From UHGV virus genome UHGV-1353888: 64,000 bases of DNA, one strand, 5' to 3'. Positions 30,325-59,290 of the stretch are shown here, one piece after another; the first letter of the stretch is position 1; every line of letters starts with the position of its first letter. This DNA comes from a virus. The notes under the pieces were generated by a model. That model saw only the letters and a list, made by a program, of their open reading frames with translations. It made no database searches and was not told the origin of the DNA. A program made the translations under genes and the position numbers.

Positions 30325-30813
30325 ATGAAATCACTAATCTCCAAGGTTTTAAAACGCGAAAACGCTTTAACAGAAGCGGCTAGTAGCCTCGTTAGAAAAT
30401 ACAGAGAGGAGACCCATCAGATTCGGAATCGAGCAAGAACTTTTTGTGTCATCCCTTTTTGGAACATGCACAATCACATGGATATGCTAACCGAATTACC
30501 CCAAGGGGAATGGGTTACTGACAACTATGACATTTCCATGTTCTATGTTGGAAGAGATAATCAGTCCACCAAGATTTTAATTAGGGCGGATGGAGACCTC
30601 CCACCTGTGTATACCGACAAACACACCCGAACTATATGGGTGGTCGAAGGGATTCTTATCGACACCGAGACAAAAAAGAAATACTGTCACAAAGATGTGT
30701 TGACCATTGGCAAGGGAGATGCTAAAAGATTAACCCTACACGGAACCATTGCTGTAATTTTTGTACCACCTGTAGAAACCAAGACACGAGAAACAAATGG
30801 CCATACCATTTAA
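30325..30813 (+). CDS. hypothetical protein (162 aa)
   Basis: ATG ORF. Confidence 0.5.
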   Translation: MKSLISKVLKRENALTEAASSLVRKYREETHQIRNRARTFCVIPFWNMHNHMDMLTELPQGEWVTDNYDISMFYVGRDNQSTKILIRADGDLPPVYTDKHTRTIWVVEGILIDTETKKKYCHKDVLTIGKGDAKRLTLHGTIAVIFVPPVETKTRETNGHTI

Positions 30814-33646
30814 CACCCCTGCTGTGAGACCCGGAGTTCCGTCTATTCCCATTAGCGCAACTGACCGGACTGCCCAGCCTTTCCAACACGAGACATCCCT
30901 TGGACTAGAACCAATTCTGTCTTTCCCTTATCCTATTCTCAAGAACTTAATGTTCTATGTGGACGAGATGGTCGAACCTAACTCTCTCCCCAAGAAGGAG
31001 ATTGGAAGTCGATTTGTTCCCAAATCCGGTATTGGCGCAGGTCTTACCGATGGTATGAGGGCCGCTATTCTGACACATATTGAACCCGTAAAGACTTCCG
31101 ACACGAAGATGATTTACAGGTTCTTCTATGTTGTTCCCCCTTCTGAACAGCACCTCTATAACATCCTGAGCATTAAGAAGGACAAGGATGGATTTACATT
31201 GAACTCCACAGCGAGTACGGGCAAGTTCTTTGATGGGACCCAGGACGAGAACGAGCTCAAGACTTTCTATGAAATCCAGCGCACCTTTGTGTATCTCCGG
31301 AACGAAGTTCCCCCTGCTCCGGTAATTGGTAGTTTCGACCCGAGCAATGAAAGCACGGACCCCTCTGTTGCTGACTTTAGCCAGGACCATGCGTATCAAT
31401 ACTATGATGCCCAATTAGTCCATGAAGAACAGGTTCAGTTTGAAGAAGAATATCTGAACAAAGTTTTTGTACGTGTTGTTCGGATTTACAAAACCCTCCC
31501 CGGTCCCGTCGTAAAGGAACTCATTCCTATCTCGAACTGGACTTTGGGACAGACGGTATTTGAACAAGGCGGACCTGGAACTACTGGGGAATGGAAGGCT
31601 CAGAATGCCCAGCGTTGGAGCCGTGAAGTGTGGGCTTACCCCGAAGATAGCACCGCCCCTCGGACTGCTTTCATTCCTCACATGCCTCCAGAAAGTCTGA
31701 CTGCAAACCCCTCCAATGATGGGTGGGATAAGGGCTCTTTCCCTGCTACGCAGATGTACACCTTGACGGGAATGATAAAGCAGTACAGTAATCTGGTTCT
31801 GAGTTCCGCTTCGGAAAATGAATCCGGAGACTGTTGCAATCCTCCTTCCCAGTTCATTCGTTGCACTAATACCTCCAAGTCCTCTTCCCAAACGATTGAC
31901 TGGACGGCTAATGGAGACCTGCCCCCCGTGAATCCTCCCGGAAGTCAGTGTAGTAAATGGTCCACCTCTTCCGAGGTTATGGTTCGTGAATCCCATAGCA
32001 ACAAGGAGACTGCTACTACGTGCGTGACCTATGATACGGTTGGGCAACTGTGGGAGAGCCAAGTAGACCAGCTTACCGGAAACGTGTTCCCGGTCCCACG
32101 GACCCTTGTTCCCAATCCCACTACGGATTTCTATGCCAACTACGAACAGGAGGGATACACCAAGGAGGTGGATGCTATAGGGAATACGTACTACGTGCGT
32201 AGGCCCAAAATGAGTATTGTCCAGTCTCCCTATACTGTTCCGGATGATGTGTGGTCCAGCATCCCTTTCTCGGTAAATGATTTTACTGTTGAGCAGGATG
32301 GTGCATCCAGACCCGATTGGGCTATCCTTGGGAGCACTTCGATTCTTCAATCTCCGGACCCGCATGCGGGATATATGGGGGTGGACGTGTCCTATACTAC
32401 TTCTCTTCCTTCTCAGGATACAAGATATTTTGTAGCCACCCTCAAGTACAATAACACGCGCCTGTGGGGAATGAGTTTTGCGAATGCCTATCCTGACTCT
32501 GCTCATGCTCCTGGAACTATTAATCTTACGTGGCAGTACACTGCACCGAACCCTACTGGTCCGTGGTTTTCTCAAGATGGAAACTATAAGCTGGTTGGGG
32601 AAATGTCCGCTATTACTACGCTGTGGGCGGAGGGTGCATCCTCAGGATGGAAGTTCCCAGTGGGTGTTGTGGAAAACATATACCAGAAGGTCCCCACTAG
32701 GTCTGAGGTGAATTTTACAACAAGCAATGCCCCCACAAATGTAAAGGTATTTCTTGATGTAAATACTCAAAATTTGAACTTCACCGTATGGCTCTCAGAC
32801 CCAACTGGATGTTCTACGACTGGTGGAACTTTTGAGTTACGTGTTAATGGTCAAGTAATTAAGACCATCTCTATCGTACTTAAAAAAACTTCTGGTGTTG
32901 TTCCTACCATGAGAATAACCCAGGGGAGTTATCAGGAGTACACTGTAGGTTCATACGTTGTCAAGGGAACTCTTCCTGATTCTATTGAGTTGGAATATGA
33001 TAACGAAGTGTATAGATACATTCAGCTTTCCAGTATTCTACTTCCTCTCAAAGATAACGTGTTCAAGGTAGAGCAGACGGCGGACGTACCCACTCTGGTA
33101 GTCCGTCAGTATGTAAATCCTTGCTTTGCTGTGGACTCCTACATGCAGATTCCCGGAGAGGGGTACTACAGGAAGTACACTTCCGTCGAGAACTTTTCCT
33201 TCCCAGGAGTATTGGGGGGATTCCAGATTTACCCCTGGAATACTCGCCCTGCTCTTAACGGACAACAGGGAGGGAAGTATTTCGTAAATTCAGCCATGTC
33301 CAAGAATGGATATAGTGGGCCCTGCACAGCTATCATCGAAGAGTTGTTTAGCCCCAATGGGGTTCTTCCGGCATCCTGGAGTACAGGGGTTGATGTCCAG
33401 TATATCACCAACAGCGGGAGTTTTCAATCTCCCCTTGTAACTTGTAACTTCCCCTCGTGTCTGCACCCCTCCATTACGGTTCAGGTAAGCGTTGGCAATA
33501 ATGATGCTACATGGCTTCCTGGTGTAACCTCTTACACATGGCCGAGAACTAATCACACTACCTGGAAACCAGTGACCATGGTTTATGTTCAACCTAGAGG
33601 CGTTGGCATTATCGCCCGTCGAGTAACTATTCAACCCCCCGCTTAA
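30797..33646 (+). CDS. large structural (tail/receptor-binding-type) protein (949 aa)
   Basis: Long beta-type sequence with many Trp/Tyr/Asn/Thr. Antisense shadow ORFs indicate biased codons. Confidence 0.55.
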   Translation: MAIPFNTPAVRPGVPSIPISATDRTAQPFQHETSLGLEPILSFPYPILKNLMFYVDEMVEPNSLPKKEIGSRFVPKSGIGAGLTDGMRAAILTHIEPVKTSDTKMIYRFFYVVPPSEQHLYNILSIKKDKDGFTLNSTASTGKFFDGTQDENELKTFYEIQRTFVYLRNEVPPAPVIGSFDPSNESTDPSVADFSQDHAYQYYDAQLVHEEQVQFEEEYLNKVFVRVVRIYKTLPGPVVKELIPISNWTLGQTVFEQGGPGTTGEWKAQNAQRWSREVWAYPEDSTAPRTAFIPHMPPESLTANPSNDGWDKGSFPATQMYTLTGMIKQYSNLVLSSASENESGDCCNPPSQFIRCTNTSKSSSQTIDWTANGDLPPVNPPGSQCSKWSTSSEVMVRESHSNKETATTCVTYDTVGQLWESQVDQLTGNVFPVPRTLVPNPTTDFYANYEQEGYTKEVDAIGNTYYVRRPKMSIVQSPYTVPDDVWSSIPFSVNDFTVEQDGASRPDWAILGSTSILQSPDPHAGYMGVDVSYTTSLPSQDTRYFVATLKYNNTRLWGMSFANAYPDSAHAPGTINLTWQYTAPNPTGPWFSQDGNYKLVGEMSAITTLWAEGASSGWKFPVGVVENIYQKVPTRSEVNFTTSNAPTNVKVFLDVNTQNLNFTVWLSDPTGCSTTGGTFELRVNGQVIKTISIVLKKTSGVVPTMRITQGSYQEYTVGSYVVKGTLPDSIELEYDNEVYRYIQLSSILLPLKDNVFKVEQTADVPTLVVRQYVNPCFAVDSYMQIPGEGYYRKYTSVENFSFPGVLGGFQIYPWNTRPALNGQQGGKYFVNSAMSKNGYSGPCTAIIEELFSPNGVLPASWSTGVDVQYITNSGSFQSPLVTCNFPSCLHPSITVQVSVGNNDATWLPGVTSYTWPRTNHTTWKPVTMVYVQPRGVGIIARRVTIQPPA

Positions 33647-34384
33647 ATGGCAATCGCATCCTACATTAACCTCAAGTATGGGAACCTCCGTGACGAGCTA
33701 ATGAAGCTCGTCATGGGGGACATCCCCACTGGTGCGGAATATGTTTTCCGCAGAATGTTGAAAGAGGCTCAGAACCTTCTTATCAACGAAGCAACCGTAG
33801 CCCCTGACTCAATCTCTCAAAGAACAGTAACTGTAGAGAAGTCAGGAGAGACATTCTCTCTATCAAATGGTGAACAATCTGTAGTCCAAGCAAGGACAGG
33901 TTCCGGGAGAACCTACACCATCGTGGACGTGTTCTCTTATACTTCTGTAACAAGCCGAAGCTCAGTAGGTTATCCCATACCATTACTTGTGGACCTGGGG
34001 TCTAATGAAAATGGTCTTCGTTCCTACAGGGTATTGAACGGGGAACACGCTCGGCAAGTACCGGGAGGGCCCGGAGTGGCATCGGAAAACATAACCCTCT
34101 ATTTACAAATTGCACAGGCTCCTCTCTCCGGAAATATTTTTGATGACAATTATTGGACGAACGACCTTGTTGTTATCCCGAATTGCTATCCTGCTTTTAA
34201 ATCTATGCTTCTGTATGTTAGGTTCATGGAGCTTGGAAATACCGCTCAAGCATTGGATTATTACAACATGGCAGTCAAAACGCTGAATGACCATCTCCGG
34301 AAGAACCGACAGGGAACTCTGATTACTCCCAAGATTGTAAATAACTTGGGGCCTGGGCAAGCAAACCCCTTTATTCCTATGTAA
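33647..34384 (+). CDS. hypothetical protein (245 aa)
   Basis: ATG 1 nt after the upstream stop. Confidence 0.5.
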   Translation: MAIASYINLKYGNLRDELMKLVMGDIPTGAEYVFRRMLKEAQNLLINEATVAPDSISQRTVTVEKSGETFSLSNGEQSVVQARTGSGRTYTIVDVFSYTSVTSRSSVGYPIPLLVDLGSNENGLRSYRVLNGEHARQVPGGPGVASENITLYLQIAQAPLSGNIFDDNYWTNDLVVIPNCYPAFKSMLLYVRFMELGNTAQALDYYNMAVKTLNDHLRKNRQGTLITPKIVNNLGPGQANPFIPM

Positions 34385-34392
34385 TATAAGAC

Positions 34393-35721
34393 ATGGCTAC
34401 TGAAAACATTACAAAGAAAGAAGACCCCGCCGCCGCGGCAAACGTGGCTACAGGAAAAAGAAATCGTGAGGCTGTGTTGAAGGACATCGCACCCGCTACC
34501 AATCCTAATGTCCCCATCCGACCCACGACAAACAATGACCCAGGAAAACCCCTGTCTCCGGAACAGCAAGCTCCTATCGCTCAATCTAATTCTAACATGG
34601 GGATTCGTCAAGGTCTATCCCCTGCTCCTACTGTTCCTACTCGGCCAGCGGGTTCCCCCAGCAGAGAACCTCTCAACCAAGCAAGCCAAGGAATAACTCC
34701 TGCTCCTGGGACAGCACCAGAAGATGAAGGAGACAGGGACGTAATCATGACTATGGATAGAGCCACCCTGAATGAGTACCGAAGAAACACCAAACTCACC
34801 GAAGCTCAGAAAGCTATTGCCGATGAAGCCGCCTTCAAGTTCATGGAAGGGTCTCACCCCCTCCAAAGCCAGCAGGATAAAGAACTTCTTTCCAGTGCTG
34901 TCAATCCTAATACTCCTGAATACGCGAGGCAACAGCAACTTACATACCAGCAGGGTATTCAAAGGGCGGCCAGGGAGGGGTTGAGGCCAGGAGAAGTGGA
35001 AGCTCTTACCGGGTTTGACCAAGTAGTAACTCGCCAGAAGCCTTCCCCTCTCCCCACCATTCCTGGAACTTCTCCTATTACAGATACGATTCCGCCCCCG
35101 AGTACGGGACTTCCCAGCGACGAAGTGTTGCTAAGTGACCTAAGCGAACTAGTCAAAAAACAGGGGAAGGATATTGCTACCCTCAGCGAAGGGGCAAGGA
35201 ATGAGCTGTTTGCACAATACAAAGCTATGAGGAATCGTCAGGCTCAGGCCGTTGAGAGGGGGAGGGGCACTACGCCCGCTACGCCCGCTACGCCCGCTAC
35301 GCAACCTGTCGTACCTACCGTTCCCCAGGTTCCTACGAGAGGTAGGACGGGCCCGGTTCAGAGAGACTATGACTACTTCCAAAAAGTATTCAACGATAGC
35401 GATGCTAGTGCAGAGGACCAGGAGATGGCAAAGGGCTACCTGCTGGTGGACCAGATTAAAAATAACCCCAATCTCTCTGCTCGGTATGGCCGAATGTTGG
35501 AAAGGGACATCAGAACTTTTGAAAGGTCGCTTCGTTCCCAAGCAAGAACCGAGAAGGCGCAAGCCCCCCATATCCGTAAGGCCCGAGGTCTTGCAGGAAC
35601 TCAAGCTGAGAGCATGAGGAATTTGAAGAAAACAAATCCGAAAGCTTATCAACTTGCGGTATGGAGAGAAGTTCTGAAACAACCTCAGTATCAAGGGCTA
35701 ACTCTACAGCTTGGTTTTTAG
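34393..35721 (+). CDS. Pro-rich hypothetical protein (442 aa) with an internal TTPATPATPATQP repeat
   Basis: Tandem ACGCCCGCT x 3.5 at 35273-35303. Terminator follows. Confidence 0.5.
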   Translation: MATENITKKEDPAAAANVATGKRNREAVLKDIAPATNPNVPIRPTTNNDPGKPLSPEQQAPIAQSNSNMGIRQGLSPAPTVPTRPAGSPSREPLNQASQGITPAPGTAPEDEGDRDVIMTMDRATLNEYRRNTKLTEAQKAIADEAAFKFMEGSHPLQSQQDKELLSSAVNPNTPEYARQQQLTYQQGIQRAAREGLRPGEVEALTGFDQVVTRQKPSPLPTIPGTSPITDTIPPPSTGLPSDEVLLSDLSELVKKQGKDIATLSEGARNELFAQYKAMRNRQAQAVERGRGTTPATPATPATQPVVPTVPQVPTRGRTGPVQRDYDYFQKVFNDSDASAEDQEMAKGYLLVDQIKNNPNLSARYGRMLERDIRTFERSLRSQARTEKAQAPHIRKARGLAGTQAESMRNLKKTNPKAYQLAVWREVLKQPQYQGLTLQLGF

Positions 35722-35763
35722 GACATATTTTCTTCTTGCAATAGTAAATATTCATGGTACAAA

Positions 35764-35801
35764 AAGGGCACAGTCTTTACGGGCTGTGTCCTTTTCTCTT
35801 T
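35764..35801 (+). terminator. rho-independent terminator: 12-bp stem with two G-U pairs, TTTAC loop, TTCTCTTT tail
   Basis: AAGGGCACAGTC TTTAC GGGCTGTGTCCTT. Confidence 0.5.
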
Positions 35802-35837
35802 ACAAGAGAGGGATTAACCAACATACTATACGCATCT

Positions 35838-38800
35838 ATGCCAAATGACACTAACCAAGAACCCTTGACTTATAGGAGTTTCGGACCCAAGAATCCGCAA
35901 ACTGAATACTATAAGCAGTTGAGGCGAGAACAAAGCCAGACTAGATGGCAGGAAGGAAGACAGGAGAGAGCGCAGGAAGCCCAGCAGACTCCTCTTTCGG
36001 AGGAAGCCAAGTTTCTTGATACACTCAACAAGATCTTCAAACAGGAAGAGGAGGCCAGCTATACTCAGGAACAGCGAGCCTATACTCAGGAACAAAGGGC
36101 TATCTCTGCTGAGGATAGAGGAATCCGTAAGAAAGAAAAGGAGGATTCCAAGAAAGAGAAACAGGCTTCGAAGCGAGACAAGCAAATCAGAGACTGGCTT
36201 TCTGGTATCAATACCCGTACACCTGGAAAGTCTTTGGGCTTTTCTACAGAGGCGGAGTATGAAGACTACCTCACCAAAACTAAGCCTGAAACCCTCGTAG
36301 ACATTACCAAGTTCAAGGCCAACGACCCCGAAGAAATCAGGCGCGCCCGCTCTGCTGTTGAAGAGATGGGAGCCTCCCTTGTTCTTAGTGGGGAACATCC
36401 TCAAGTGGCCGAAGGTTCTTTCCGTAGTCTGGAACCGCAGGATAAAGCCAACAGGCTTCTTTCCAAATCCAAGTACGGACTCACCAAAACCGAAGATGGT
36501 TCTTATGTGGTAGACGAACGCTTCCTTGCTAGAGTTAATGACCCCTCCACCGCTGGCATGAGGAACGAGAATATCGCTCGTGCCATTGTAAACAATCTTA
36601 AATCCATTATTTCCAAGGAAGATGAAAGAGGCCGCAGTGATTACCTTATCCCCGACGTTGAAGAAGTTACCAACCTCGTCAGAAACGCACGAGCAAAGAA
36701 CAGGGAAACCTACCAAGAGTACGAAAAAATCAGGGAGAGATTCGCAGTACCAAAGGGTGAAGAAGAACAAAAGGCTGTAGCCCCTGAAAAGGTGGGGGAG
36801 CAAAATGGTGGAGACTCTTCTAGGACTCAACCTACTCTGGTGCAACATGTGCTGAGTGAGGTTGACAGGTTCTTCACCGTCAACCCGGAAGCTATGGAGT
36901 ACCTCAACACTCTTGGTGCCAAGACGGATGAGGAAATTCCCGGAGCTATCGAAGACCAAAAGTTTAGAGAGCAAGCCCGTAGGGGTATTGAACTCAAGGA
37001 CCAACTGGCTCGTGCTATCTCCGAAGCCAACCCCGCCATCGACCTGAGAACCGTTCGAAATGAACTAGACGACGATGCGCTCCTGTACAGGGAAGCGGTC
37101 AGCCAGTTCTATGGTGGAGAGATTCCCGAAGAAGTTTCCTCTGCTATCCTCAATCGAACCACACAACTCGCCCAGCAGAGGCAAGCCCTTGTGGCCAGCG
37201 ACTATGCCAAGGCCGAGAAGGATGCTATCGCTGAACACCTCAAGTCTCTTGGCTTGGATGAAGGGGTAGCCCTTAGCATGGGTATATCTGGATTAACCAA
37301 TCGCCATATCGCTGAGAGTGATACGGGGATGGGTACGATGCGTAGTGCCGTGAACGAAGCACTTCAACAGTATCAGTCAGGTGCGGGACAGCTTGCCGCA
37401 TCCATGAGCTTCGGTGAACAGAAAGGCTATCGAGACCCCCTCTCCCACATGCAGTGGGTGAACATCGGGGATGGCAAGATGGCTTATGCTTTCGTTGACC
37501 CCGGCACAAATGAACGTGTCGGGAATGGGTTCATTGTAGACTTTGGTAACGTAGACCAGCAAGCCAAGGCTCTTGGTGTTAGTAGGGAAGCCTACCTTGA
37601 CAACCTCGCTCTTCCCTTCAAGATGGGCAACCTGAACGCAACGGACGAAGCGAACTCCTTGTTCGCTTGGGACAAGTTGAACGGTAAGCTCGTTGAGAAC
37701 GCTACGGCGGAAAGCACAGGGGGTCTTGCCTACTACGACAATGACCTTATTGAACGAAGTGTCCTTCGTGCAGTTGAAGCTGGGGCCCCTGCTGAGGTGG
37801 TAGATAAGTACCGGGAGAACCTTCTCCAACTCCAGAAGCAGAATGCCAAGGATATGATTGACCAGATGCTCGGGCAGTATGAAGCTGTAGCTAATCTTGT
37901 GGCTTCTGATAGCAAGACTCTGGACACTCTGTTCCCCGGAATCCGTCTCGCAATGAAGGCAATGCACAATGACTTCCGGGATTACTATGCAGAGAACAAG
38001 GGAAAGATGACCAACGAGGAAATCATTTCTTCCTTCCTTGCTGACGAGCAGAACCGACAGGGCTTCCTTGCCATCACTATGGCGGGAGCTAAGACCGTAG
38101 CCCGTTACAAGGCCGCGGCTATTGGTGCTTCCCAGTTCGTGAGTGAAGGCTCTCGTATCATAGGCCTTGGAACCGGAGACCCCGCTAAGTACAACAACAT
38201 GTGGGAGAACCTTCACAAGGAGGAGCAGGCCATTAACACCATCACTACCCGTGCTGGTGGGGTTGCTGAATGGGGTGCTGAAATTGGGAACGTCCTGTTG
38301 CAGACTGCAGAGACCACAACCACTGGTGGTATCGGTGGGGTTAGCGGAAGAGTTGGTACTATGACTGGTAGGCTTGCCAAATTATTTGGTGAAGCTGTTG
38401 CCCTCAAGGCCGCTACTCCCGGAACCATGCGTCTCGGTCAGGTAATCACGAAGCTCGGTGGCGGGGTTGAACGTCTGGTCTCCGGACCCGGCAAGTCCGC
38501 CCTCACTCAGGCTTCCTCCCGTGGTTCCAGTCTGGCTATCTCTGCCAAGCTCTTCACGGATGCCGCGGCTCCTACCTTCGGGGAAGTGTCCAACGCAACC
38601 TACAATGAAGAGATGGCACGGCTCGCCAAGGACCCGGAAACATCGGGTCTTTCCGAAGCCATCCGTATGGAGATGGCACAGAACGTCGCCACCACCAAGG
38701 GAAGTATTGCGGGTATCGGATATGGTATCTTCTCTACTATCCTCAACAACCGCGCTGGTTTCAACCGCATGATTCGTAAGGCCACGGGTGCTACCACCAA

Positions 38801-41800
38801 GGCCCCCGGTGTTTTCGGAAAGCTGGAAAGCTCTCTTGAAGGACCCGGCATCTTCAACCTCAAGGGTCTTCCTGGGAAGGAAAAGGCTATCTCCATTGCT
38901 AAACAAGTTGGTCGTCTCTCCGCCTCCGCCGTTGAAGGTGGCACGGAAGAACTGGCTGATGAAGCTTTGCAGTGGGCATGGCAGACCCTTACTCAGCATG
39001 GAGAAATCCGTGAAGAAGATATTGCCAGCGAGCGGGATGTATGGAATGCCGCCAGCAAGATTTTCATCCTCGGTGCAATCGGGGGTGAAGTCGGCCACGG
39101 GATTCAGGCCATGACTGCCCTGCCTCCGGAAGCTTCCAACCGAAGAGACCAAGCCATCCAGGCTCAGACTCTCTACGGAGAAGCCATGAGGAATGCCCTG
39201 GATAGCGACGTGGAAGGTGCCAACACTACTCTGATTGAAGCATTGAAGGAAGGTCTTGACAAGAGTTCTGCCCTTGCTGATGCCGCCATCACGAGTAAGG
39301 AAGCCGCCATGTCGGTCGCCCGTAACGGGAACATCCAAGCTGACGAGAATGTCATCAACGAATGGTCCTCCATGATTAGCCAGTTGCCGGACGGCACTAG
39401 TGTTCAACTCAATAACTTCTCTGCTGAATACAGCAGGTTGAATAGGATTGGGGATGAAGCAGGTGCGGCTTCCCTGCATCAGGCTTTTGTTGAGGACATC
39501 GCGGCGAGCGATACCCTTACGGACACCCAGCGTCAGATTGCGGGGGAACTTATCCTACAGCTTACGCAGGGTACTCCCACCGCTGAGTTCGTGGAAGATG
39601 TTTCTACTCAGGTAGTTCTTCCAGAAGGCATTGAAGAGTTGGCCGCAGTTGAAGTAGAAGAAGCCCCCGCCCCGGTAACGGAAGAACTGAAGCCAGAGGG
39701 AGACCTTGTTGAGCAGGAGGTTGAGGAAGAAGTTGTTCAGATTGGGGAACGCGACTACGGGTATAATGCCCCGAACCCGGTTCCCTTTGTTCAGATGCTT
39801 TCCGATTGGTATACCAGTGAGACTCCCATTACCCCTGAGATTCGTGGGGAAATGAACGCCCTGCTTACTGACCTTGAGCTTGAAGACCCGGACATCTATG
39901 ACTTCATCACTGATGGTAAGGAAGATGTGGACCGTGCCACGGTTCGCCGACTTCTCACCGTGGCTAACATGACGGGACCCGATGGCCCCCTCGCTGTTGA
40001 TATGAAGGGGAACACTGAAATTCAGAAGGGGAATGCCCTGCTGACGGACAAGACGGTATGGAGCAAGTATGACAAGGATGTCGAGATACAGGATTCCAAC
40101 TGGGCCGCAGATGTGTTTAATATGGTGGGCGAAGGAATGCAACCTATTCAAAACGTGCTCGACGATGTTCTCAATACTGTTCAGGATGAAAGAACCCGGA
40201 ACAATATTAAAGACATTGTAGAGTTCCTTGAGGAACGTGGAGTTCCGGTGAGCGTGGCTACCATTCAGGGGGACAGCAACATTGCTGGTCTCACGATGAT
40301 GGACCCGTCCTCTCCAGAACAGCATATCGCTCTGAACTTTAGCGCGAAGAATGTAAAATCCTCCCCTGCTGATGTCCTGCTCCACGAACTAACTCACGTT
40401 CTGGACAACCATCTGAGGGAGACAGACCCCCTGTATGCAGAACGCGTAGCAAGCATCGAAGAAATTGTCCGCTCCAACTGGGCCAACATCCAGAAGGAAG
40501 CGGAACGGGTGGCTCGCACTGCTGTAACTGAGGAGGAGCAGGCTGAGATTGACCAGTTCATTGCTGAGATGGAACAGGCTTTGTTCAATAAGCAGACTGA
40601 GTTCGAGGGTGGACGTGAGTTCCTTCCTAATGTAATTACCAACCCCATCATGGGAGAGGTGATTGCACAAGGCAATCTCCCGTTTGACCAAGCTCTCGAC
40701 CAGTGGGCCTCCCCCAACAACCTTGCTCGAATCTCTCAGATTGGCAGAGGCAAGGTGAGCAGGATTGTTCATAACCTCATTAATGCTGTGTCCTCCATCC
40801 TCAAGGGTGCCCAGGTTGTTGAAGGGAAAGTTAATCCCAACGCCGCGGTTATTCGTGTGGAAGAAGGAACCCTGGCTGACCCGACAAGGATGAAGATTGT
40901 TTCTCCGAAGCTGGCTGAATACAAGCCGGGAGTTGAAGACGAGAACGTATTCATTACGGACCGCGGCGTTGATGCCGCCCTCTTCTCGTCCTCTGAGAAC
41001 TTTGTCGGAGCAGGGAAGAGACTATTCCGGACGGCGAATGTCAAGGGTGGATTCACCGCTGACAAACGTACTGGGAAAAAGGTTAAGGAATTCGCTGGTA
41101 ACTTCCAGACTTACGTTAATGAACTTGTCGCACGAAACGAACGAACCAAGCGATATGTAACTCAGCAAACGAAGGGAATGGAAGACTCCGAACGGGCTAC
41201 CGTCATCAACTCCATCGTGAACTACACGGGCGATTTGGGCAACACGCTCGACCCGAAGGTTACTCGCCGTATCTTTGCGGAGACTAACAACAAGGTCGAA
41301 CAAGCCAGGGTGGCCAGGGAGGCTGAGGTGGACGCGGCGAACAATGAGTACGCCAAGTTCATTGCGGACCGGAGGAAGGCTATCATCCAGGCGGAGGCCA
41401 GGGTGAACGCCCTTGCCGGGACTCAAGCATTGCAGAATGTTGGAGTAGCTATTACCCAAGCTGTTCAGGTAGCTAAGGAAGTCCCCCAGGTGGACGAGAA
41501 GAACCCGATGGCTGTAGCCGCGGCTCGTTTCAGGAAGGCTCAGGAAGAACTCAACCCCGTGATGAAAGAGATTTACAGCACGTTGGACGAGGATGCTAAG
41601 GCCGAAATGAACGAAGCGTATGATAAGACCATGAAGGCCATTGCGGAAGACTTGGCTCAGGACTTCGACAACCCTGCTGAAATCGTACCGGGCCTTCTCA
41701 GTATCGGTGGGCTTCAAAACGTTCCCAGTGTGGACGACTTGTCCGCAATGTTCACTTCGGTCATCAAGGCCAACAGGCTTGGATGGTTGAAGAAGGATGC

Positions 41801-44800
41801 CGATGCTGTGCGTGCCGCCAAGGATATAACCATAGCCCAGCAAGCCCGTAGAGAGCGCATAGCCCAAGCCGAAAAGAACTACCAGACGAAGGTAGGACGA
41901 GGAGGCATGAAGAATGGGGTATGGACTTCTCCTGGAACGGTATGGCTTGAGCGTGATGCGGCATTGACTGCGGAGAAGAACCGGATGGAAACGGTATACG
42001 CCATGAAGAGAAATGAAGCCCGTAAGGAACTTCTCAAATATCCTTTTGGTGCCCGCCTGCTCAATGTGCTGGATGACAACCGAAGAGCTATTGCTACCAT
42101 GGAAGCTAACCTGATGCACCGCCGCGGAGCCATTGGCCTCGGAACAAAGGTGAGGGACTTTACCTACCTTTCCCGAACGTTTGCCGCGGTAGGCAAGGAG
42201 TCCATCAACTTCCGTAAGGCTATGATGGAACTACTGGACAGCAACGGCGAAGTGAAGCCGGAGTTTACCCACCTTGTAGGTATCCTAAACAATGCAATCC
42301 AAAGCTACATGAGAGAAAACATCTCCCGTTACAACCAGGGTATTTCAGAAACCCTCGACAACATGCTTGCTATGAGCAAGGTGGCTGATGAACTTGGTCT
42401 GGACGGTAGTGAATACCTTGGCTTCAAGGGGAAGGACGTATGGAAGAATGTAAGTGAATACCTGACGAAGGACCCGGCCCTGGCTGAGAGTGCTCTGAAC
42501 ACAATCAACAATGGTCACTGGAACGAGATTGCCAAGATGAAGGATGGCTCGGTTGAACTCCGTCTCATTATCAACAAGGCGAGCCAGCTAGATAACCTGC
42601 TCGCCTCTGCTGATGGTGGGGAGAAGAGCCGACTCCGTAGCAAGATGCGTAAGGCGAAGGCAGACCTGATGAACAAGGCGGCGGAAGACTATGTGCTTTC
42701 CAGTATGGGAGTAACCGATACTGACCTCCGCTCCTTCCTCCTCGGTCTAAATTCTCCGGAACAAATCACGGAAGCATTCAAATCAACTCCTTACCTGGAC
42801 TCAAGCGTAATCTCCAACCTGATGGGAACGGACGAAAACCTCCGAACCCGCATCAGCAACACCTTGGATTATGTGAGAAAGTCCACCGCTATTGAAATGC
42901 AGAAGCAGGGGGTAAACCTGACCGCTAACCAGCGGGACATGTCCCTTCTTGCTGATGGTGAAGTAGCGGATGCCCTGATAGCTACCGCTCGGAATGTGTT
43001 CAAGGAGACCCTATCCAAGGAGCGTAACGAAGAAAACATCTTCGCCAATCGTAAGAACCTGATGGATAGTGAACTTCAAATTCTTGGAGTTCGCGGATTC
43101 AGCAATCTCACGGATGCCTTCGGTGTTATTCAAAACACCCTGTCCTCCCAGGGCAGAGCCTATGTCAACCAAGTAATTACGCATGACGTAGCAAGGAGCC
43201 TTGAGAGGCACGGGGTTGTTACCGGGGAGAGGACGAAGGAGAATACTCACCTTCTGGAATTCCAGAACAAGGCCAACCCGCTGAACGGAATGTACGCAGA
43301 AAGGGACATCGCCCTTGTCCTCTACCAAGCCATGCGACCTGACGAAGCAATTATGCGGGGTAAGGAATTTGGGAAGAAGTTACAGAGCCATTGGGGTAAC
43401 AACTGGGGAATGCTGAGAAGCATCGGTGGATTTGTTTCCATGCTGACCCTGGTCCGTACTCCCTCCGCTACCCTCCGTAACATGGCGGGGACCGTGGGGC
43501 AAAGCCTGAACGCAGGTGCTCTCCCGTTTGACAAGGGGGTTATCAAGGGATATGGAGAAGTGTACCAGCTTGCCCAGGACTTCGTTGTTGCGAACATCCT
43601 AAGTTCCGCGGGTTCCGTTGGTGTGAGAGGTGCAGTGAACAGTGAGATTATGGCGAACGCTGAGAAGCGATTCAACCAGTCCATGCAGAGGTATCGTGAC
43701 CTGGGCCTGCTCGACGCGGGCGCGGCGAACTTCATGAAGGAACAGTGGAAGCAGGGGCTTAATGAAATGAGCCAGAAAGAGGGCAGTGAAATCAGCTTGC
43801 CCGACGAGGACGCAATGTTCTCTTCGCTCGTATCGGAACTAGGAGACCGGAGCACTGCAAAGAAAGCGATGGACCTCGCCAAGCGCATTGCGTATGGTAC
43901 GTTCGTTTCGCCTATGAGCGTTGCCGCTTCTGCTTACTCCGTCCCTGACGTTATCGCCAAGATAATCCTCTTCAATGGGGAGAGCCACAAGGTAAGCAAG
44001 GTAGTGAAAGCTGAGCTCGCACAAGCTGAGAAGCTGAGTAGAGCAGGGAAGGAAGACAAGCTGACAAGCTACATGAAGGACGCTTTGGCCGCTAAGAAGG
44101 AGGGGACTCTTACTTCCTACATTGAACGTAGGGCGGCGGACAGGACGAAGAACCTTCTTCCCACGGGTGCAAGAACTCCTGACTGGGTGAATAAGGTAAG
44201 CATCTTTGGGATGCCCTTCTTCTCCTTCATGTACCACACTTGGCAGAGTGTCCCTTACAGCATTGGCTATGGGATGGAAGAACTTCGCGCCGCAAGGTTT
44301 GCAACCAATACGGCAGATAAAGTCTCCCTCTACATGGATGCCACCCAAAAGTTTGGGGGGGCTATCCTGGGCCAGTATGCTATGATGGAACTGATGCGGT
44401 TTGCCCTTCCGATTGTTACTCAAGCAATCATGGGTATGGTCACGGGTGATGACGAAGAAGACAAGATGCAGATGCTCGAAGCAAGTTCGTTTACCCGTTG
44501 GCTTGCACGGAATGCTGGACTCTCCGCGGACTACGACCAGAACGGAGAACTCTTTTTCTGGTTTGACAAGGATAATGAAACCTTCATAGTCCAGGATGGT
44601 CAGTACCTTCTGCCCTATAAGAGCCTTGGTGAAACCCTGGGTGCTATTATCAACCTTGCTGGATTGAATCCTTTCTCTGACAAGAGTGAGGCTAACCAAT
44701 TCGAGGATGACTACACCGCCCAGCTTCTGGATTATGTTCAGAGCACGGCTGGCTCTCCCTCCATGTGGATTCAAATGCTCATTGATATGGGTTCAAAGGA

Positions 44801-45608
44801 ACCCCGTCAAAGCGCAGACCTGAAACAACTGGGTGGGGTATCAGCAATCCCGGAAGCCTTTGGGAATGCCCTGCTCATGAGCTTAGGACTCCGCCCTTCT
44901 GCTGAACTTGCGGGCGGTAGGACGCTCGACTGGATGGAAAGGATAGCCACGACTGTAAAGGATAACCTCCCCCTATGGCCTACTCTGGTTCAGGGGGTGC
45001 AGACCTGGACAGGAATGAACCCGGATAGTGAAAAGGCAGGGTGGTTGTTGAAGAACCTTGGCTTCGGTGTTCGTCGCCCCAAGAATATTAATGATGTCCT
45101 CCGGGACAGTCTTGCTAAAGGTAACAAGGACCTCTCCAATTCGTTGAAGAACCAGCGCATCATGGATACCAACCTTTACACGGCTGACCTTAGCGATGCA
45201 GAGTATGACAAGATTATCGAGGCTGATAAGGCTATGGTAATTGAGCAGAGTATTTCCCTCGCTAATAGGTTCCTGGCGTTGAAGGGGTTCCTCAAGGGGA
45301 TGGGAGTCAAGGACGTTGACACGGTTCTTGAAGCATCTGCTCAGGAAGCGGGCATATCGTTGAAGGCTATGGATGACCTTATCTCTGGCCGGGCCAAAGA
45401 CTTCATCTCTAACCAGAGGTTTGACAAGATTGAAGAGACGAGAGACCGCTTGCTTAACAGGCCCGGTATCACTCCGGAAGCTAAGAAAGCCATCCTCCGC
45501 CAGTTCCAACAAGCTGAGAAGGTGTATGACATCGACGCAGTAGATATTACTTCCAGCTTGATTGAGCCGGATAATGTGGAGCAGGAGGTGAAGAGCCAGA
45601 AGAGATAG
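35838..45608 (+). CDS. giant virion-type protein (3,256 aa). Possible T7-RNAP/Pol-A-like palm motifs in the C-terminal third, a possible N4-like virion RNA polymerase
   Basis: Preferred start is the ATG at 35838, after the terminator; the track start 35754 lies inside it. Motifs at 43.1-44.5 kb: SSQGRAYV, ALPFDKG, RSTAKKAMDLAKRIAYG. HELTH at 40381. Confidence 0.7.
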   Translation: MPNDTNQEPLTYRSFGPKNPQTEYYKQLRREQSQTRWQEGRQERAQEAQQTPLSEEAKFLDTLNKIFKQEEEASYTQEQRAYTQEQRAISAEDRGIRKKEKEDSKKEKQASKRDKQIRDWLSGINTRTPGKSLGFSTEAEYEDYLTKTKPETLVDITKFKANDPEEIRRARSAVEEMGASLVLSGEHPQVAEGSFRSLEPQDKANRLLSKSKYGLTKTEDGSYVVDERFLARVNDPSTAGMRNENIARAIVNNLKSIISKEDERGRSDYLIPDVEEVTNLVRNARAKNRETYQEYEKIRERFAVPKGEEEQKAVAPEKVGEQNGGDSSRTQPTLVQHVLSEVDRFFTVNPEAMEYLNTLGAKTDEEIPGAIEDQKFREQARRGIELKDQLARAISEANPAIDLRTVRNELDDDALLYREAVSQFYGGEIPEEVSSAILNRTTQLAQQRQALVASDYAKAEKDAIAEHLKSLGLDEGVALSMGISGLTNRHIAESDTGMGTMRSAVNEALQQYQSGAGQLAASMSFGEQKGYRDPLSHMQWVNIGDGKMAYAFVDPGTNERVGNGFIVDFGNVDQQAKALGVSREAYLDNLALPFKMGNLNATDEANSLFAWDKLNGKLVENATAESTGGLAYYDNDLIERSVLRAVEAGAPAEVVDKYRENLLQLQKQNAKDMIDQMLGQYEAVANLVASDSKTLDTLFPGIRLAMKAMHNDFRDYYAENKGKMTNEEIISSFLADEQNRQGFLAITMAGAKTVARYKAAAIGASQFVSEGSRIIGLGTGDPAKYNNMWENLHKEEQAINTITTRAGGVAEWGAEIGNVLLQTAETTTTGGIGGVSGRVGTMTGRLAKLFGEAVALKAATPGTMRLGQVITKLGGGVERLVSGPGKSALTQASSRGSSLAISAKLFTDAAAPTFGEVSNATYNEEMARLAKDPETSGLSEAIRMEMAQNVATTKGSIAGIGYGIFSTILNNRAGFNRMIRKATGATTKAPGVFGKLESSLEGPGIFNLKGLPGKEKAISIAKQVGRLSASAVEGGTEELADEALQWAWQTLTQHGEIREEDIASERDVWNAASKIFILGAIGGEVGHGIQAMTALPPEASNRRDQAIQAQTLYGEAMRNALDSDVEGANTTLIEALKEGLDKSSALADAAITSKEAAMSVARNGNIQADENVINEWSSMISQLPDGTSVQLNNFSAEYSRLNRIGDEAGAASLHQAFVEDIAASDTLTDTQRQIAGELILQLTQGTPTAEFVEDVSTQVVLPEGIEELAAVEVEEAPAPVTEELKPEGDLVEQEVEEEVVQIGERDYGYNAPNPVPFVQMLSDWYTSETPITPEIRGEMNALLTDLELEDPDIYDFITDGKEDVDRATVRRLLTVANMTGPDGPLAVDMKGNTEIQKGNALLTDKTVWSKYDKDVEIQDSNWAADVFNMVGEGMQPIQNVLDDVLNTVQDERTRNNIKDIVEFLEERGVPVSVATIQGDSNIAGLTMMDPSSPEQHIALNFSAKNVKSSPADVLLHELTHVLDNHLRETDPLYAERVASIEEIVRSNWANIQKEAERVARTAVTEEEQAEIDQFIAEMEQALFNKQTEFEGGREFLPNVITNPIMGEVIAQGNLPFDQALDQWASPNNLARISQIGRGKVSRIVHNLINAVSSILKGAQVVEGKVNPNAAVIRVEEGTLADPTRMKIVSPKLAEYKPGVEDENVFITDRGVDAALFSSSENFVGAGKRLFRTANVKGGFTADKRTGKKVKEFAGNFQTYVNELVARNERTKRYVTQQTKGMEDSERATVINSIVNYTGDLGNTLDPKVTRRIFAETNNKVEQARVAREAEVDAANNEYAKFIADRRKAIIQAEARVNALAGTQALQNVGVAITQAVQVAKEVPQVDEKNPMAVAAARFRKAQEELNPVMKEIYSTLDEDAKAEMNEAYDKTMKAIAEDLAQDFDNPAEIVPGLLSIGGLQNVPSVDDLSAMFTSVIKANRLGWLKKDADAVRAAKDITIAQQARRERIAQAEKNYQTKVGRGGMKNGVWTSPGTVWLERDAALTAEKNRMETVYAMKRNEARKELLKYPFGARLLNVLDDNRRAIATMEANLMHRRGAIGLGTKVRDFTYLSRTFAAVGKESINFRKAMMELLDSNGEVKPEFTHLVGILNNAIQSYMRENISRYNQGISETLDNMLAMSKVADELGLDGSEYLGFKGKDVWKNVSEYLTKDPALAESALNTINNGHWNEIAKMKDGSVELRLIINKASQLDNLLASADGGEKSRLRSKMRKAKADLMNKAAEDYVLSSMGVTDTDLRSFLLGLNSPEQITEAFKSTPYLDSSVISNLMGTDENLRTRISNTLDYVRKSTAIEMQKQGVNLTANQRDMSLLADGEVADALIATARNVFKETLSKERNEENIFANRKNLMDSELQILGVRGFSNLTDAFGVIQNTLSSQGRAYVNQVITHDVARSLERHGVVTGERTKENTHLLEFQNKANPLNGMYAERDIALVLYQAMRPDEAIMRGKEFGKKLQSHWGNNWGMLRSIGGFVSMLTLVRTPSATLRNMAGTVGQSLNAGALPFDKGVIKGYGEVYQLAQDFVVANILSSAGSVGVRGAVNSEIMANAEKRFNQSMQRYRDLGLLDAGAANFMKEQWKQGLNEMSQKEGSEISLPDEDAMFSSLVSELGDRSTAKKAMDLAKRIAYGTFVSPMSVAASAYSVPDVIAKIILFNGESHKVSKVVKAELAQAEKLSRAGKEDKLTSYMKDALAAKKEGTLTSYIERRAADRTKNLLPTGARTPDWVNKVSIFGMPFFSFMYHTWQSVPYSIGYGMEELRAARFATNTADKVSLYMDATQKFGGAILGQYAMMELMRFALPIVTQAIMGMVTGDDEEDKMQMLEASSFTRWLARNAGLSADYDQNGELFFWFDKDNETFIVQDGQYLLPYKSLGETLGAIINLAGLNPFSDKSEANQFEDDYTAQLLDYVQSTAGSPSMWIQMLIDMGSKEPRQSADLKQLGGVSAIPEAFGNALLMSLGLRPSAELAGGRTLDWMERIATTVKDNLPLWPTLVQGVQTWTGMNPDSEKAGWLLKNLGFGVRRPKNINDVLRDSLAKGNKDLSNSLKNQRIMDTNLYTADLSDAEYDKIIEADKAMVIEQSISLANRFLALKGFLKGMGVKDVDTVLEASAQEAGISLKAMDDLISGRAKDFISNQRFDKIEETRDRLLNRPGITPEAKKAILRQFQQAEKVYDIDAVDITSSLIEPDNVEQEVKSQKR

Positions 45609-45634: not shown

Positions 45635-45676
45635 ATACCCCCTTGACCTTCGCGGGTTAAGGGGGTATATTTTATC
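45635..45676 (+). terminator. rho-independent terminator: 10-bp stem ATACCCCCTT/AAGGGGGTAT, 14-nt loop, ATTTTAT tail
   Basis: Read directly. Confidence 0.55.
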
Positions 45677-45677
45677 C

Positions 45678-46283
45678 ATGAAGAAACTCAAACAACACTA
45701 CGGCACTATCCCCCCTGGGGGTTGGTCATTCACCATACCGCTCGAAATGAGCGAAGTGCTCGTAGGGACCAAGATGATTGCTCCGACCTTGTGGCAGTTG
45801 AAGGACGAATTGAACAAGCTGTTCATCCGTAATCAGGAAAGCTTTAATGAAACCCTGTTTGAACAGTTCATGTGCAGGGATTTGCCGGAGGACTGGTGTG
45901 AAACGTGTGGAGATGAAGGGGACCCGTGGATGGAAGAGAGACCCTTCGATGCGAAGAAGATTGCCGCCTTCTTTATTACCCTGCTCAGATGGCTACGCAA
46001 TGGGAAGAAGTTTGTGAGCAAGGAGGAAGCCCAGCGGAGGTATTCGAAGTGCCTGTCCTGTCCGTTTAGTACACGGGATGTCCCACCGAGTCTTCGCCTG
46101 GAAGGGTGCAAGAGTTGCGAGGTGGAGAAGGCCGCGAGGGGAACCATCCTGGAAGCGACGAAGAAGTATGGTTCCGTGGACGAGGGAGAGGAGGAACAGG
46201 GATTGTCTCCCCTCTATTGCAAGGTATGTGGATGCGAGTTAAGAGCCAAAGTCTGGTTTGATATACAGACCAAGTGTTGGTAA
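45678..46283 (+). CDS. Cys-rich (multi zinc-ribbon) protein (201 aa)
   Basis: CETCGDEGD, CLSCPFS, CKSCE, CKVCGCE. Confidence 0.55.
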   Translation: MKKLKQHYGTIPPGGWSFTIPLEMSEVLVGTKMIAPTLWQLKDELNKLFIRNQESFNETLFEQFMCRDLPEDWCETCGDEGDPWMEERPFDAKKIAAFFITLLRWLRNGKKFVSKEEAQRRYSKCLSCPFSTRDVPPSLRLEGCKSCEVEKAARGTILEATKKYGSVDEGEEEQGLSPLYCKVCGCELRAKVWFDIQTKCW

Positions 46284-47583: not shown

Positions 47584-47666
47584 ACTATAGCAGGGGAGAT
47601 TAAAATGTAAGGGGTCTCTTGTGTCATACAAAATAAAACCCCAGGAACGCGCCAACGTTCCTGGGG
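47584..47666 (-). promoter_or_regulatory. terminator hairpin (47639-47666, 11-bp stem), T tract, then promoter: box 47618-47629, -35 TTACAT (47605-47610), -10 TATAGT (47584-47589)
   Basis: Minus-strand reading: CCCCAGGAACG...CGTTCCTGGGG TTTTATTTT GTATGACACAAG AGACCCC TTACAT n15 TATAGT. Confidence 0.5.
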
Positions 47667-56018: not shown

Positions 56019-56711
56019 TTAGAGATTGTAGAATTTAATATATTCTTCCCTGCTTTTAAATGTCCTCACCTTCCCCCCGTGACCGTTGTATACGATTGTT
56101 TCAATTCCTTCGCCATTCGAACGGTTGTCATAAACATGAATAGTAGAGCCGTCTTTTAAAGTAAAAGCCGTAGCAATTCCCTTATACTTAGGGTTTTTAC
56201 GGGAGACTACACTGCGTGCGAGGTTGTAATTAGTATACACACGCCCCATTTTTTGAGGCCACGGGTATGGGGTGCTATCCAGGCTCATAAACACAAGGTC
56301 CATGCCGTTAGGATAGGAAAAGAAGTCCCATTTTTCCGGAGCTAGTTCGGCATCCCATTTGACTAGGTGAGTTAGCGAAAATTGGAACTGTGCATAGAAC
56401 GGAACCAAATCCTCAAAGGCGAAAAGGAAACGTGCTCCCTGCTCAATAGCGTACTTAACCATTTTTTTACCAAATCCTTTCCCCCGGAATAGGTGAGAGA
56501 CTATGAGGGAAACAAGTTCCCCCTCCGCGGTTATCGAAAATACTCCGACGATGGAGCCGTCATTTACTAGCCTGAAACACTTGCATCCATTATCCCTGTA
56601 CCAGTCACCGGGGTAAACGTCAACATGTGCTTTCTCCATGTCTGACAGATAATGGCGCAGTTCCCCTGCAAGGCTCTCCATTGCATAAGGATTTATCTTT
56701 TCAATATACAT
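56019..56711 (-). CDS. GNAT-family N-acetyltransferase domain fused to a ~120-aa C-terminal domain of unknown function
   Basis: GNAT motif A VGVFSITAEGELVSLIVSHLFRGKGFGKKMVKYA. Conserved leader AAATAGAAAGACAAAAGAAAATG. Confidence 0.6.
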   Translation of the reverse strand: MYIEKINPYAMESLAGELRHYLSDMEKAHVDVYPGDWYRDNGCKCFRLVNDGSIVGVFSITAEGELVSLIVSHLFRGKGFGKKMVKYAIEQGARFLFAFEDLVPFYAQFQFSLTHLVKWDAELAPEKWDFFSYPNGMDLVFMSLDSTPYPWPQKMGRVYTNYNLARSVVSRKNPKYKGIATAFTLKDGSTIHVYDNRSNGEGIETIVYNGHGGKVRTFKSREEYIKFYNL

Positions 56712-56774: not shown

Positions 56775-56830
56775 GTTATACCATAGGAGCGGGGAAAAAC
56801 AAGACTAATCTTTTTTGTCTTGTGTCATAC
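56775..56830 (-). promoter_or_regulatory. promoter: box 56819-56830, -35 TTGTTT (56797-56802), 16-nt spacer, -10 TATAAC (56775-56780)
   Basis: Minus-strand reading: GTATGACACAAG n16 TTGTTT n16 TATAAC. The leader carries a GCCGGAGGCC...GGCACAAC hairpin. Confidence 0.45.
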
Positions 56831-59172: not shown

Positions 59173-59290
59173 TTTCTTATGTCTTTCTAATTTTTGTTGT
59201 TATTACGGGGTTGTGTCTCCCTTACGCATTTCTTTATACCATTTTTGAGAGAGGATGCAAGGAGAAATGTTGAAACCTTGTGTCATACAG
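59173..59290 (-). promoter_or_regulatory. repeat element C: promoter (box 59277-59288, -35 TTGCAT, 16-nt spacer, extended -10 TGGTATAAA)
   Basis: Conserved blocks CCCTTACGCA and CTTTATA, as in elements A, B and D. Confidence 0.5.

Follow-up and report, generated by a model that had tools for sequence, protein, structure and literature searches.

A giant, putatively virion-carried protein of an uncultured phage shares an HExxH domain with N4 gp50 and has no detectable polymerase module

The stretch of DNA analysed here, referred to as the window, comprises 64,000 nt of the virus genome UHGV-1353888, and it encodes a giant protein of 3,256 amino acids (aa). A first-pass annotation of the sequence had tentatively assigned this protein as a virion RNA polymerase (vRNAP) like that of phage N4, packaged and injected into the host cell. 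The giant protein itself was confirmed, as the open reading frame (ORF) is real and is the largest gene in the window, but its assignment as a polymerase was not. The reading favoured here, and judged to be likely, is that of a giant virion-carried ejection or polyvalent protein, similar to N4 gp50 through a zincin-like domain and without the polymerase module. The features discussed are listed in Table 1.

Table 1. Positions of the giant gene, its regions and motifs, and the surrounding signals (window coordinates unless a relative is named)
Feature	Position	Strand	Residues (aa)	Basis or remark
Four genes 5' of the giant gene (162, 949, 245 and 442 aa)	30325..35721	+		Order and similar sizes kept in L001, L002 and L007-L010
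G+C-rich 14-bp hairpin with U-rich tail, terminator/attenuator-like, between the 442-aa gene and the giant gene	35763..35803	+		RNA fold, minimum free energy -32.3 kcal/mol, z = -5.4
Upstream hairpin in relatives	L001:9926-9960, L007:14643-14686, L009:13934-13965, L010:14702-14744
Promoter-like TTTACA-17-CATACT just 5' of the start codon	35799..35827	+		Consensus scan 9/12, weak match only
Giant gene	35838..45608	+	3,256 plus stop	ORF list, translation, homologue N-termini, full-length syntenic homologues
N-terminal region: charged N-terminus, conserved core, Gly/Ala-rich stretch	35838..39590	+	1-1251	Composition, invariant columns
Acidic Pro/Val/Glu-rich low-complexity linker	39591..39737	+	~1252-1300	Sequence; indel-rich in 7-sequence alignment
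Zincin-like (MPTase-type) domain core	40155..40697	+	~1440-1620
HELTH	40383-40397	+	1516
Full HExxHxxDxH	40383-40412	+	1516-1525
EF-x6-NP element	40617-40646	+
C-terminal region	40935..45605	+	1700-3256	Holds all four claimed polymerase motifs
LSSQGRAYV	43140-43166	+	2435
Conserved block (..SPSATLRNMAGTVGQSLNAGALP..), enclosing claimed motif A	43407..43604	+	2524-2589	Weak match to gp50 C-terminal domain C2
ALPFDKG	43518-43538	+	2561
RSTAKKAMDLAKRIAYGT (claimed motif B)	43848-43901	+	2671
Most conserved C-terminal block (LLPTGARTPDWVN..GMPFFSF.YHTWQS.PYS.GYG.EE)	44154..44282	+	2773-2815	Dense invariant columns, 24-51% identical homologues
GDD	44445-44453	+	2870
FDKD	44562-44573	+	2909
Terminator-like hairpin (15-bp stem and T-rich tail) right after the giant gene	45635..45668	+		Terminator scan
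GTATGACACAAG boxes	47618-47629, 56819-56830, 57752-57763, 59277-59288, 60181-60192, 62668-62679	-

A word-indexed search of 5.8 billion proteins retrieved seven relatives, full-length or nearly so, with identities of 98% or 49%. The homologues across the clade, which come from uncultured phages of ~63-73 kb, ranged in size from 3,199 to 3,408 aa. When a HMMER profile of aa 2250-3256 was searched exhaustively against 1.84 billion cluster representatives, only four proteins were recovered, all of them from the protein's own family and none a polymerase; two of these, P0008 (3,381 aa) and P0009 (3,211 aa), are distant giants, 24-25% identical to the window protein. Neither the C-terminal 1,256 aa nor a 21-kb region of the window had a tblastn or megablast match among 50,697 GenBank phages, and the genes of the clade had no close relatives there. 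As a control, N4 gp50 found 458 phage records in the same collection by tblastn, down to ~20% identity. The window phage lineage is very distant from cultured phages.

The HExxH domain and N4 gp50

Histidine is rare in the giant protein (24 of 3,256 residues), and only 0.015 HExxH motifs would be expected in a protein of such composition. The HELTH sequence, which had been put down as a possible chance hit, was invariant in the family; given both this invariance and the low expectation, the HExxH is not likely to be due to chance. The longer pattern (L/I)HExxHxxDxHxR.T.P.Y was invariant in seven sequences from at least five lineages, as was the EF-x6-NP element ~78 residues further on in the same seven sequences. 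Together, HExxHxxDxH and EF-x6-NP form the only conserved catalytic-looking motif that was recognised in the giant protein. A search for further homologues with a profile of the HExxH region, using the word-indexed approach, returned one fragment only.

The residues H1516, E1517, H1520 and E1594, invariant in the seven sequences, map to predicted helices (211-230 and 296-302) in an AlphaFold2 (AF2) model of the region. The topology of this modelled fold was a helix, three strands and then the HExxH helix. Fold matches were weak, but zincins recurred among them (anthrax lethal factor, CapP, PPEP-2 and PPEP-3, ADAMTS5, MMP-11, SPRTN and Ste24). In the mode of action proposed here, the zincin-like, metallopeptidase-type domain would be the one recognisable catalytic module of the protein, with H1516 and H1520 as putative metal ligands, E1517 as the general base and E1594, on the later helix, as the third ligand.

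The HExxH region of gp50 was described as a zincin-like MPTase, typical of the polyvalent proteins of phages and plasmids (Iyer et al. 2017, PMC5512222), and in the cryo-electron microscopy structure of N4 gp50 it corresponds to domain C1, aa 2124-2375 (Bellis et al. 2026, PMC13434306). In the true vRNAPs an invariant HExxH (H2228, E2229, H2232) is followed 82 residues on by E2310 and then by N2318 (NEFMAWGLTN). The corresponding element of the window family, EFLPNVITNP, has the identical eight-residue spacing from E to N, and the distance from H to E is 78 aa as against 82 aa. Comparison of the window domain with gp50 C1 by hhalign gave a probability of 77% (P = 2.1e-5) over 102 columns, covering a strand, the HExxH helix and the EF...N helix. 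When gp50 was scanned in 23 overlapping 300-aa segments, the C1 segment came top with a score of 46, its overlapping neighbour scored 35 and the others scored 11-28. A reversed control of the C1 comparison gave P = 0.16. The homology with gp50 C1 indicated by these sequence profiles is of moderate, not overwhelming, strength.

In gp50, C1 is followed by C2, a large and mostly helical domain with no known structural relatives (PMC13434306). Between aa 2524-2589 of the window protein and gp50 aa 3201-3269, hhalign of the full profiles gave P = 3.4e-4 with a probability of 38%, and sub-alignments gave P = 0.002-0.04. A weak collinear likeness to C2 extends over aa 2524-2720, where TLRNxxGTxxQ resembles VxNxxxNxxQ and AYSxPDxxAKI resembles QYGDFxAKA; this C2-like stretch lies about 1,030 aa from the HExxH here and about 1,000 aa from it in N4. 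Statistically, this similarity is suggestive only, and the giant protein is possibly akin to gp50 through a C-terminal scaffold as well. The claimed polymerase motifs A and B both fall inside the C2-like stretch. In a scan of gp50 against Pfam-A (E <= 0.01), four vRNAP models were matched and none was matched by its HExxH (C1/MPTase) domain or by C2. A gp50-like protein that lacks the polymerase would thus escape routine annotation.

Polymerase-like motifs and their conservation

The short peptides that had been compared with motifs of T7 RNA polymerase (RNAP) were all present, within a few bases of where they had been placed. The four motifs occur in the right order, with successive spacings of 126, 110 and 199 residues; the distance from motif A to motif B, given earlier as ~170 residues, is the 110 of this series. 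In T7 RNAP the spacings are about 116, 90 and 185, and those of the giant protein are roughly alike. In composition-preserving shuffles of the protein, GR occurred ~13.6 times, [FLIVM]D[GSK][GS] ~1.3 times and Rx3K..YG ~0.13 times, and the single motifs are thus unremarkable. The ordered triple was rarer, in ~1 of 2,000 shuffles, for patterns that were fitted after the fact.

As catalytic residues must survive divergence, conservation was the decisive test. The Arg of the first motif was lost in both distant giants, LSSQGRAYV being replaced by LSYQKDTLV in P0008 and LSLQSNLAV in P0009 (QKD and QSN), and QSR was found in P0002. At claimed motif A, FDKGV, including the proposed catalytic D2565, was absent from P0008 and P0009 as a five-residue deletion. 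At claimed motif B, R2671, K2675 and Y2686/G2687 were not conserved, and the region was rich in indels in the same two proteins. GDD was replaced by GED, by a gap plus D or by DDD, and FDKD by YDKS, FNKG or VDKD. A positive control was provided by six true vRNAPs (N4, Zuri, Ruegeria V21, Erwinia S6, Vibrio D473 and LIT1; 19-47% identical to N4), in which R1421 (of T/DxxGR), D1556 (motif A), R1663 and K1667 (motif B) and D1948 (motif C) were all invariant.

Profile searches agreed with this result. No match to the giant protein or to three of its homologues was found in Pfam, PHROGs or NCBIfam, including the vRNAP-specific Pfam models PF21894, PF21769, PF21867 and PF21624; as a control, N4 gp50 matched four vRNAP models with E = 1e-22 to 1e-97 and LIT1 matched two, weakly. 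When PDB sequences were searched by phmmer and by profiles, with the 949-aa neighbour, the HExxH region, the family and the whole protein as queries, no match had an E below ~0.07, and hhalign of all regions against a profile of the N4 RNAP domain gave P >= 0.23. The profile check against T7 RNAP, N4 and single-subunit polymerases had been set beforehand as the refuting test of the polymerase assignment, and no similarity was found. An AF2 model of aa 2057-3256, built from four sequences, was helical almost throughout, apart from a small three-stranded sheet at aa ~2897-2920, and it was poor (predicted local distance difference test, pLDDT, 45; predicted template modelling score, pTM, 0.28). 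In this low-confidence model, claimed motif A and GDD lay in loops between helices and not on a beta-sheet. Foldseek comparison of the model with the PDB returned noise only, with no E < 0.3 and no RNAP, and was uninformative owing to the quality of the model.

The absence of a DxDGD-type motif that had been reported was confirmed, since neither [DN]x[DN]G[DN] nor DxDxD occurs in the protein. On this ground the two-barrel RNAPs of the crAss-like or YonO type were rejected as a model for it, and for the T7-like single-subunit RNAPs (PF00940) the likeness stops at the motif level, being neither conserved nor matched by a profile.

The first-pass annotation had envisaged a T7-type palm at aa ~2,300-3,000, more exactly at aa ~2,430-2,910, in an injected enzyme that would transcribe the early genes from GTATGACACAAG promoters. 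Its length, a genome of ~69 kb, a position after putative tail and ejection genes that resembles that of N4 gp50, the order and spacing of the motifs and a domain in common with a true vRNAP all speak for such an enzyme. On the other side, the proposed catalytic residues are lost or deleted in homologues, whereas the true vRNAPs keep theirs at lower identity, no similarity was found to polymerase profiles or to any of 1.84e9 proteins outside the family, and the region of motifs A and B has its weak alignment with C2, a part of gp50 that is not polymerase. The conservation test has largely refuted this reading, which is now the least probable of all those considered, and there is very probably no T7/N4-type polymerase in the giant protein.

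The GTATGACACAAG boxes did not support an injected RNAP either. Six exact copies were found, all in the early region. In five of the six, a -35-like TTGCxx (TTGCAT-like) or TTGTTT follows 15-16 nt on, and after a further ~16 nt TATAAA or TATAAC; the copy at 47618 has a different spacing. A 'tgcgtaagggg'-like stretch was also observed further downstream in three or four of these five. The hairpin form of the N4 early promoters was not found at the boxes, and none of the ten large ORFs tested from the early region is an RNAP. From its sequence context, the box resembles not a phage-RNAP promoter but an element upstream of sigma-70-type early promoters, either UP-like or bound by a regulator. The sigma-70-type -35 and -10 hexamers suggest that the early genes are probably transcribed by the host RNAP.

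Proposed role of the giant protein

In every lineage recovered, the giant gene is preceded by a like series of genes (162, 949, 245 and 442 aa in the window). The relatives L001 (ENA ERZ27261361, a 73 kb contig, 49% identical) and L002 (98% identical) keep the order and similar sizes of these genes. In the lineages L007-L010, which were reached through homologues of the 949-aa neighbour (97 proteins), the order was an endolysin gene, small genes, and genes of 637-959 aa, ~245 aa and 345-398 aa (442 aa in the window), followed by the giant gene of 3,199-3,408 aa. As the block recurs in every lineage, the giant protein marks out, as a conserved feature, a small clade of phages that are all uncultured. 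The block of four upstream genes plus the giant gene is proposed to be a tail-tube and ejection-protein module.

Of the likeness to N4 that had been claimed, the looser part survives. The giant protein is a counterpart of gp50 in position and size, with the HExxH C1 domain in common, but it holds no detectable polymerase. In N4 the order is gp54 (299 aa), gp53 (885 aa), gp52 (150 aa), gp51 (644 aa) and gp50 (3,500 aa), to be set beside 162, 949, 245, 442 and 3,256 aa in the window. For the neighbours of the giant gene, homology was detected neither to N4 gp51-54 nor to any family (no Pfam or PHROG match for the four genes, and none in the PDB for the 949-aa protein), so that the synteny with N4 is one of size and order only.

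A few copies of the giant protein would be packaged in the capsid, as its gene position and similarity to gp50 suggest. If N4 gp50/51/52 and the internal virion proteins of T7 are taken as the model, these copies would at infection be expelled through the tail along with the products of the preceding 245-aa and 442-aa genes, and would help to build, or pass through, a trans-envelope conduit for the DNA. The zincin-like domain might cut the giant protein into functional pieces or cleave host proteins. The remaining roughly 2,800 residues appear to be lineage-specific, and the modelled C-terminal 1,200 aa would be mostly helical scaffold. A Kyte-Doolittle scan of the giant protein gave no convincing transmembrane helix (maximum 1.43), and membrane insertion is therefore not claimed. 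Transcription of the early genes would be left to the host RNAP, acting on the sigma-70-type promoters.

N4 gp50 (Schitoviridae) is also a giant protein encoded in a genome of ~70 kb, after a ~900-aa protein and two smaller ones (gp53, gp52 and gp51; here 949, 245 and 442 aa). Both proteins have a low-complexity linker after the N-terminal domain (PMC13434306), which is acidic here, and an HExxH domain followed by an invariant E-x7-N element. Both continue in a long region downstream of the HExxH domain that is mostly helical in gp50 and predicted to be helical in the modelled part here. The two differ in that the ~1,100-aa T7-like RNAP module of gp50 (N4 aa 1007-2101) has no detectable counterpart in the window protein, and significant similarity is also lacking over the N-terminal region and over the greater part of the C-terminal one. 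The early promoters also differ, being sigma-70-like in the window and of the hairpin type in N4 (PMC13434306).

The resemblance to polyvalent MPTase proteins (PMC5512222) lies in a very large late product with a zincin-like HExxH domain and, in the model, in a three-stranded sheet, an HExxH helix and a later helix with a conserved Glu. The widespread phage-type MPTase clade has an Asp three residues past the HExxH (PMC5512222), as does the window protein (HELTHVLD), whereas the His at the end of strand 2 in that clade is not conserved in the window family. Unlike the polyvalent proteins, the window protein has no second recognisable effector (ADP-ribosyltransferase (ART), methylase, SNF2, lysozyme or nuclease), and it does not match the Pfam polyvalent-protein models.

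T7 gp16, of the internal virion protein D (IVP-D) group, is the product of the last large gene of its tail and ejection block, a position that the giant gene would hold in the proposed module of the window, and is extensively alpha-helical, as the modelled C-terminal part here is predicted to be. T7 gp16 has 1,318 aa and the window protein is about 2.5 times longer. Unlike T7 gp16, the window protein has no lytic transglycosylase domain, and no sequence match to IVP-D members was found with the tools used. According to Hardies et al. 2016 (PMC4819975), podovirus IVP-D homologues host variable embedded domains, among them a SAM-binding domain (H66 gp60), and the N4 polymerase counts among this cargo; the window family fits into such a picture as a form that lacks it.

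Several points weigh against the ejection-protein reading. Presence in virions is deduced from gene position and gp50 likeness, in a phage known from sequence alone. The link to gp50 consists of one domain of moderate significance, obtained with shallow profiles (effective number of sequences, Neff, ~3), and the similarity to C2 does not reach significance by itself. No similarity was detected between the 949-aa family and N4 gp53, or between the portal and capsid candidates and gp59 and gp56, and as the virion genes lack similarity to N4 the phage cannot be placed in Schitoviridae. The Pfam polyvalent-protein MPTase model was unmatched, as it was by gp50 in the same type of scan. About 85% of the protein is without an assigned function, and unrecognised enzymatic cargo may be present there. 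Lastly, the screen for an RNAP gene covered 64 kb of the ~69 kb genome.

Few aspects of phage infection are understood as poorly as the giant virion proteins that are injected, and gp50 is the best-studied example. Its non-polymerase parts looked specific to Schitoviridae until now; here, an equally large protein in an unrelated-looking clade of ~70 kb phages retains the HExxH domain and not the polymerase. This points to the giant scaffold with its zincin as the older device for ejection, of more general use, and to the polymerase as cargo that can be exchanged, a view proposed from comparative analysis (Hardies et al., PMC4819975; Iyer et al., PMC5512222). The family may be an RNAP-less sister of gp50, in which the scaffold exists on its own. 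If this is true, it would be direct evidence for an origin of the N4 vRNAP in which a T7-like polymerase was inserted into a giant ejection protein that already existed. The window family also offers a simpler system in which to ask what the conserved HExxH domain does. As a caution for annotation, size, position and short motifs are insufficient by themselves to call a giant podovirus protein a vRNAP. It is in the unassigned ~85% of the protein that any real surprise would lie.

The strongest competitor, although a rather unlikely one, is a packaged anti-defence or takeover effector of the DarB polyvalent type that acts mainly in the cytoplasm, for example by proteolysis, with no part in a conduit. 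The MPTase is a hub domain of polyvalent proteins, for which counter-defence and self-processing were proposed (PMC5512222), and the large unassigned part of the giant protein would leave room for effectors. However, no methylase, helicase, ART, nuclease or other effector domain was detectable by the family scans, and the conserved synteny with two smaller proteins, as in the N4 and T7 ejection modules, favours a structural role in ejection. The two roles are not mutually exclusive.

It is improbable, but somewhat less so than the readings that follow, that the N-terminal ~1,250 aa or the conserved C-terminal blocks (e.g. aa 2773-2815) hold, in place of the polymerase, an enzymatic cargo whose fold has yet to be described. 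The N-terminal region had no family matches, and its hhalign comparison with the N-terminal and RNAP domains of N4 gave P >= 0.13. Its Gly/Ala-rich stretch at aa ~800-1090 contains weakly hydrophobic segments and includes the invariant patch EGGxEELxDExxxW (aa 1033-1046). The block at aa 2773-2815 can also be written as the pattern LLPTGxRTPxW...YHT...Y...GY..EE.

A tape measure protein of a long-tailed phage, perhaps with an embedded peptidase, is very unlikely. Such proteins can carry peptidase domains, and the great length, the mostly helical C-terminal part of the model, the Gly-rich, weakly hydrophobic segments and the late-region location would suit one. At about 1.5 Angstrom per residue, however, 3,256 aa would correspond to a calculated tail of roughly 490 nm, and no distal-tail or baseplate genes were found downstream, where one 201-aa ORF is followed by the early region on the opposite strand. 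The tail-fibre-like gene lies about 14 kb upstream, no PHROG or Pfam tape-measure family was matched, and the single recognisable domain matches N4 gp50, a podovirus ejection protein. The tape-measure reading was rejected on the lack of downstream tail genes and of a family match.

An equally small chance is given to a late scaffold that is not part of the virion (for membrane or replication) and whose HExxH belongs to an oxygenase of the alpha-ketoglutarate (alpha-KG)-HExxH type. HExxH does occur in radical-SAM and alpha-KG-HExxH enzymes (PMC13434306) and packaging of the giant protein is a deduction, but the gene is on the late strand adjoining lysis and tail-like genes, the domain is similar to that of a known packaged protein, and the three predicted strands, the HExxH helix and the invariant later Glu fit the description of a zincin (PMC5512222).

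Start site, flanking signals and other genes

The uninterrupted + strand ORF extends over 35754-45608. An earlier ATG in this ORF lies upstream of a strong hairpin (35763-35794), and the sensible start is therefore ATG 35838, the first ATG past the hairpin, where the 49%-identical homologues also begin with MPN.... The same hairpin separates the giant gene from the gene before it, and the giant gene is not strictly the last of the series, since a 201-aa + strand ORF at 45678-46283 comes after it. A strong G+C-rich hairpin was observed 5' of the giant gene in all five lineages, within a spacer of ~105-115 nt and with differing sequences; a terminator-like U-run was present in some lineages and not in others. 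The hairpin may act in attenuation or in RNA stability, setting how much of the giant protein is made. That it keeps expression low, in line with a low copy number in virions, is speculation. L001 has a similar TTTACA...ACTAT past its hairpin.

The order terminase, portal, capsid and giant protein, on which the polymerase claim had leaned, was not recovered, as the four genes directly upstream of the giant gene are not recognisable as such. The only large terminase detectable is far upstream, at 7696-9519 (+; phrog_2, E = 8e-15), and its tblastn matches, in Clostridium phages, span just 14% of the protein. At 12580-17843 (+), the genes likely to encode a portal (761 aa), a scaffold-like protein (386 aa) and a capsid protein (424 aa) matched nothing.

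The 949-aa protein (30797-33646, +) was conserved among its 97 homologues at aa ~1-460 and ~770-949, with several invariant Cys residues. Its centre (~300 aa) had no invariant columns, and in some relatives the match extended over no more than about 47% of the query. Such a pattern points to a tail or receptor-binding protein that is modular, its middle part being exchangeable.

Other products of the window are a family A DNA polymerase, a SNF2-type helicase, a PD-(D/E)XK nuclease and an endolysin with a peptidoglycan-binding domain, and the window has a leftward early region of small genes. In L001, a 403-aa IS605 OrfB/TnpB (Cas12f-like) gene is inserted in the early region (L001:25580-26791); this gene is not listed in the L002 gene table for the part covered. 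The early genes of the window include an HNH endonuclease with NUMOD4 (homing-type) at 62703-63395 (-) and a GNAT acetyltransferase at 56019-56711 (-), and a zinc-ribbon/DUF6926 protein is encoded at 56805-57644. A flavin-dependent thymidylate synthase, ThyX, is encoded at 22184-22879 (+; Pfam E = 4.5e-51) in the middle of the late, structural strand, between the tail-fibre-like gene and the lysis/ejection block.

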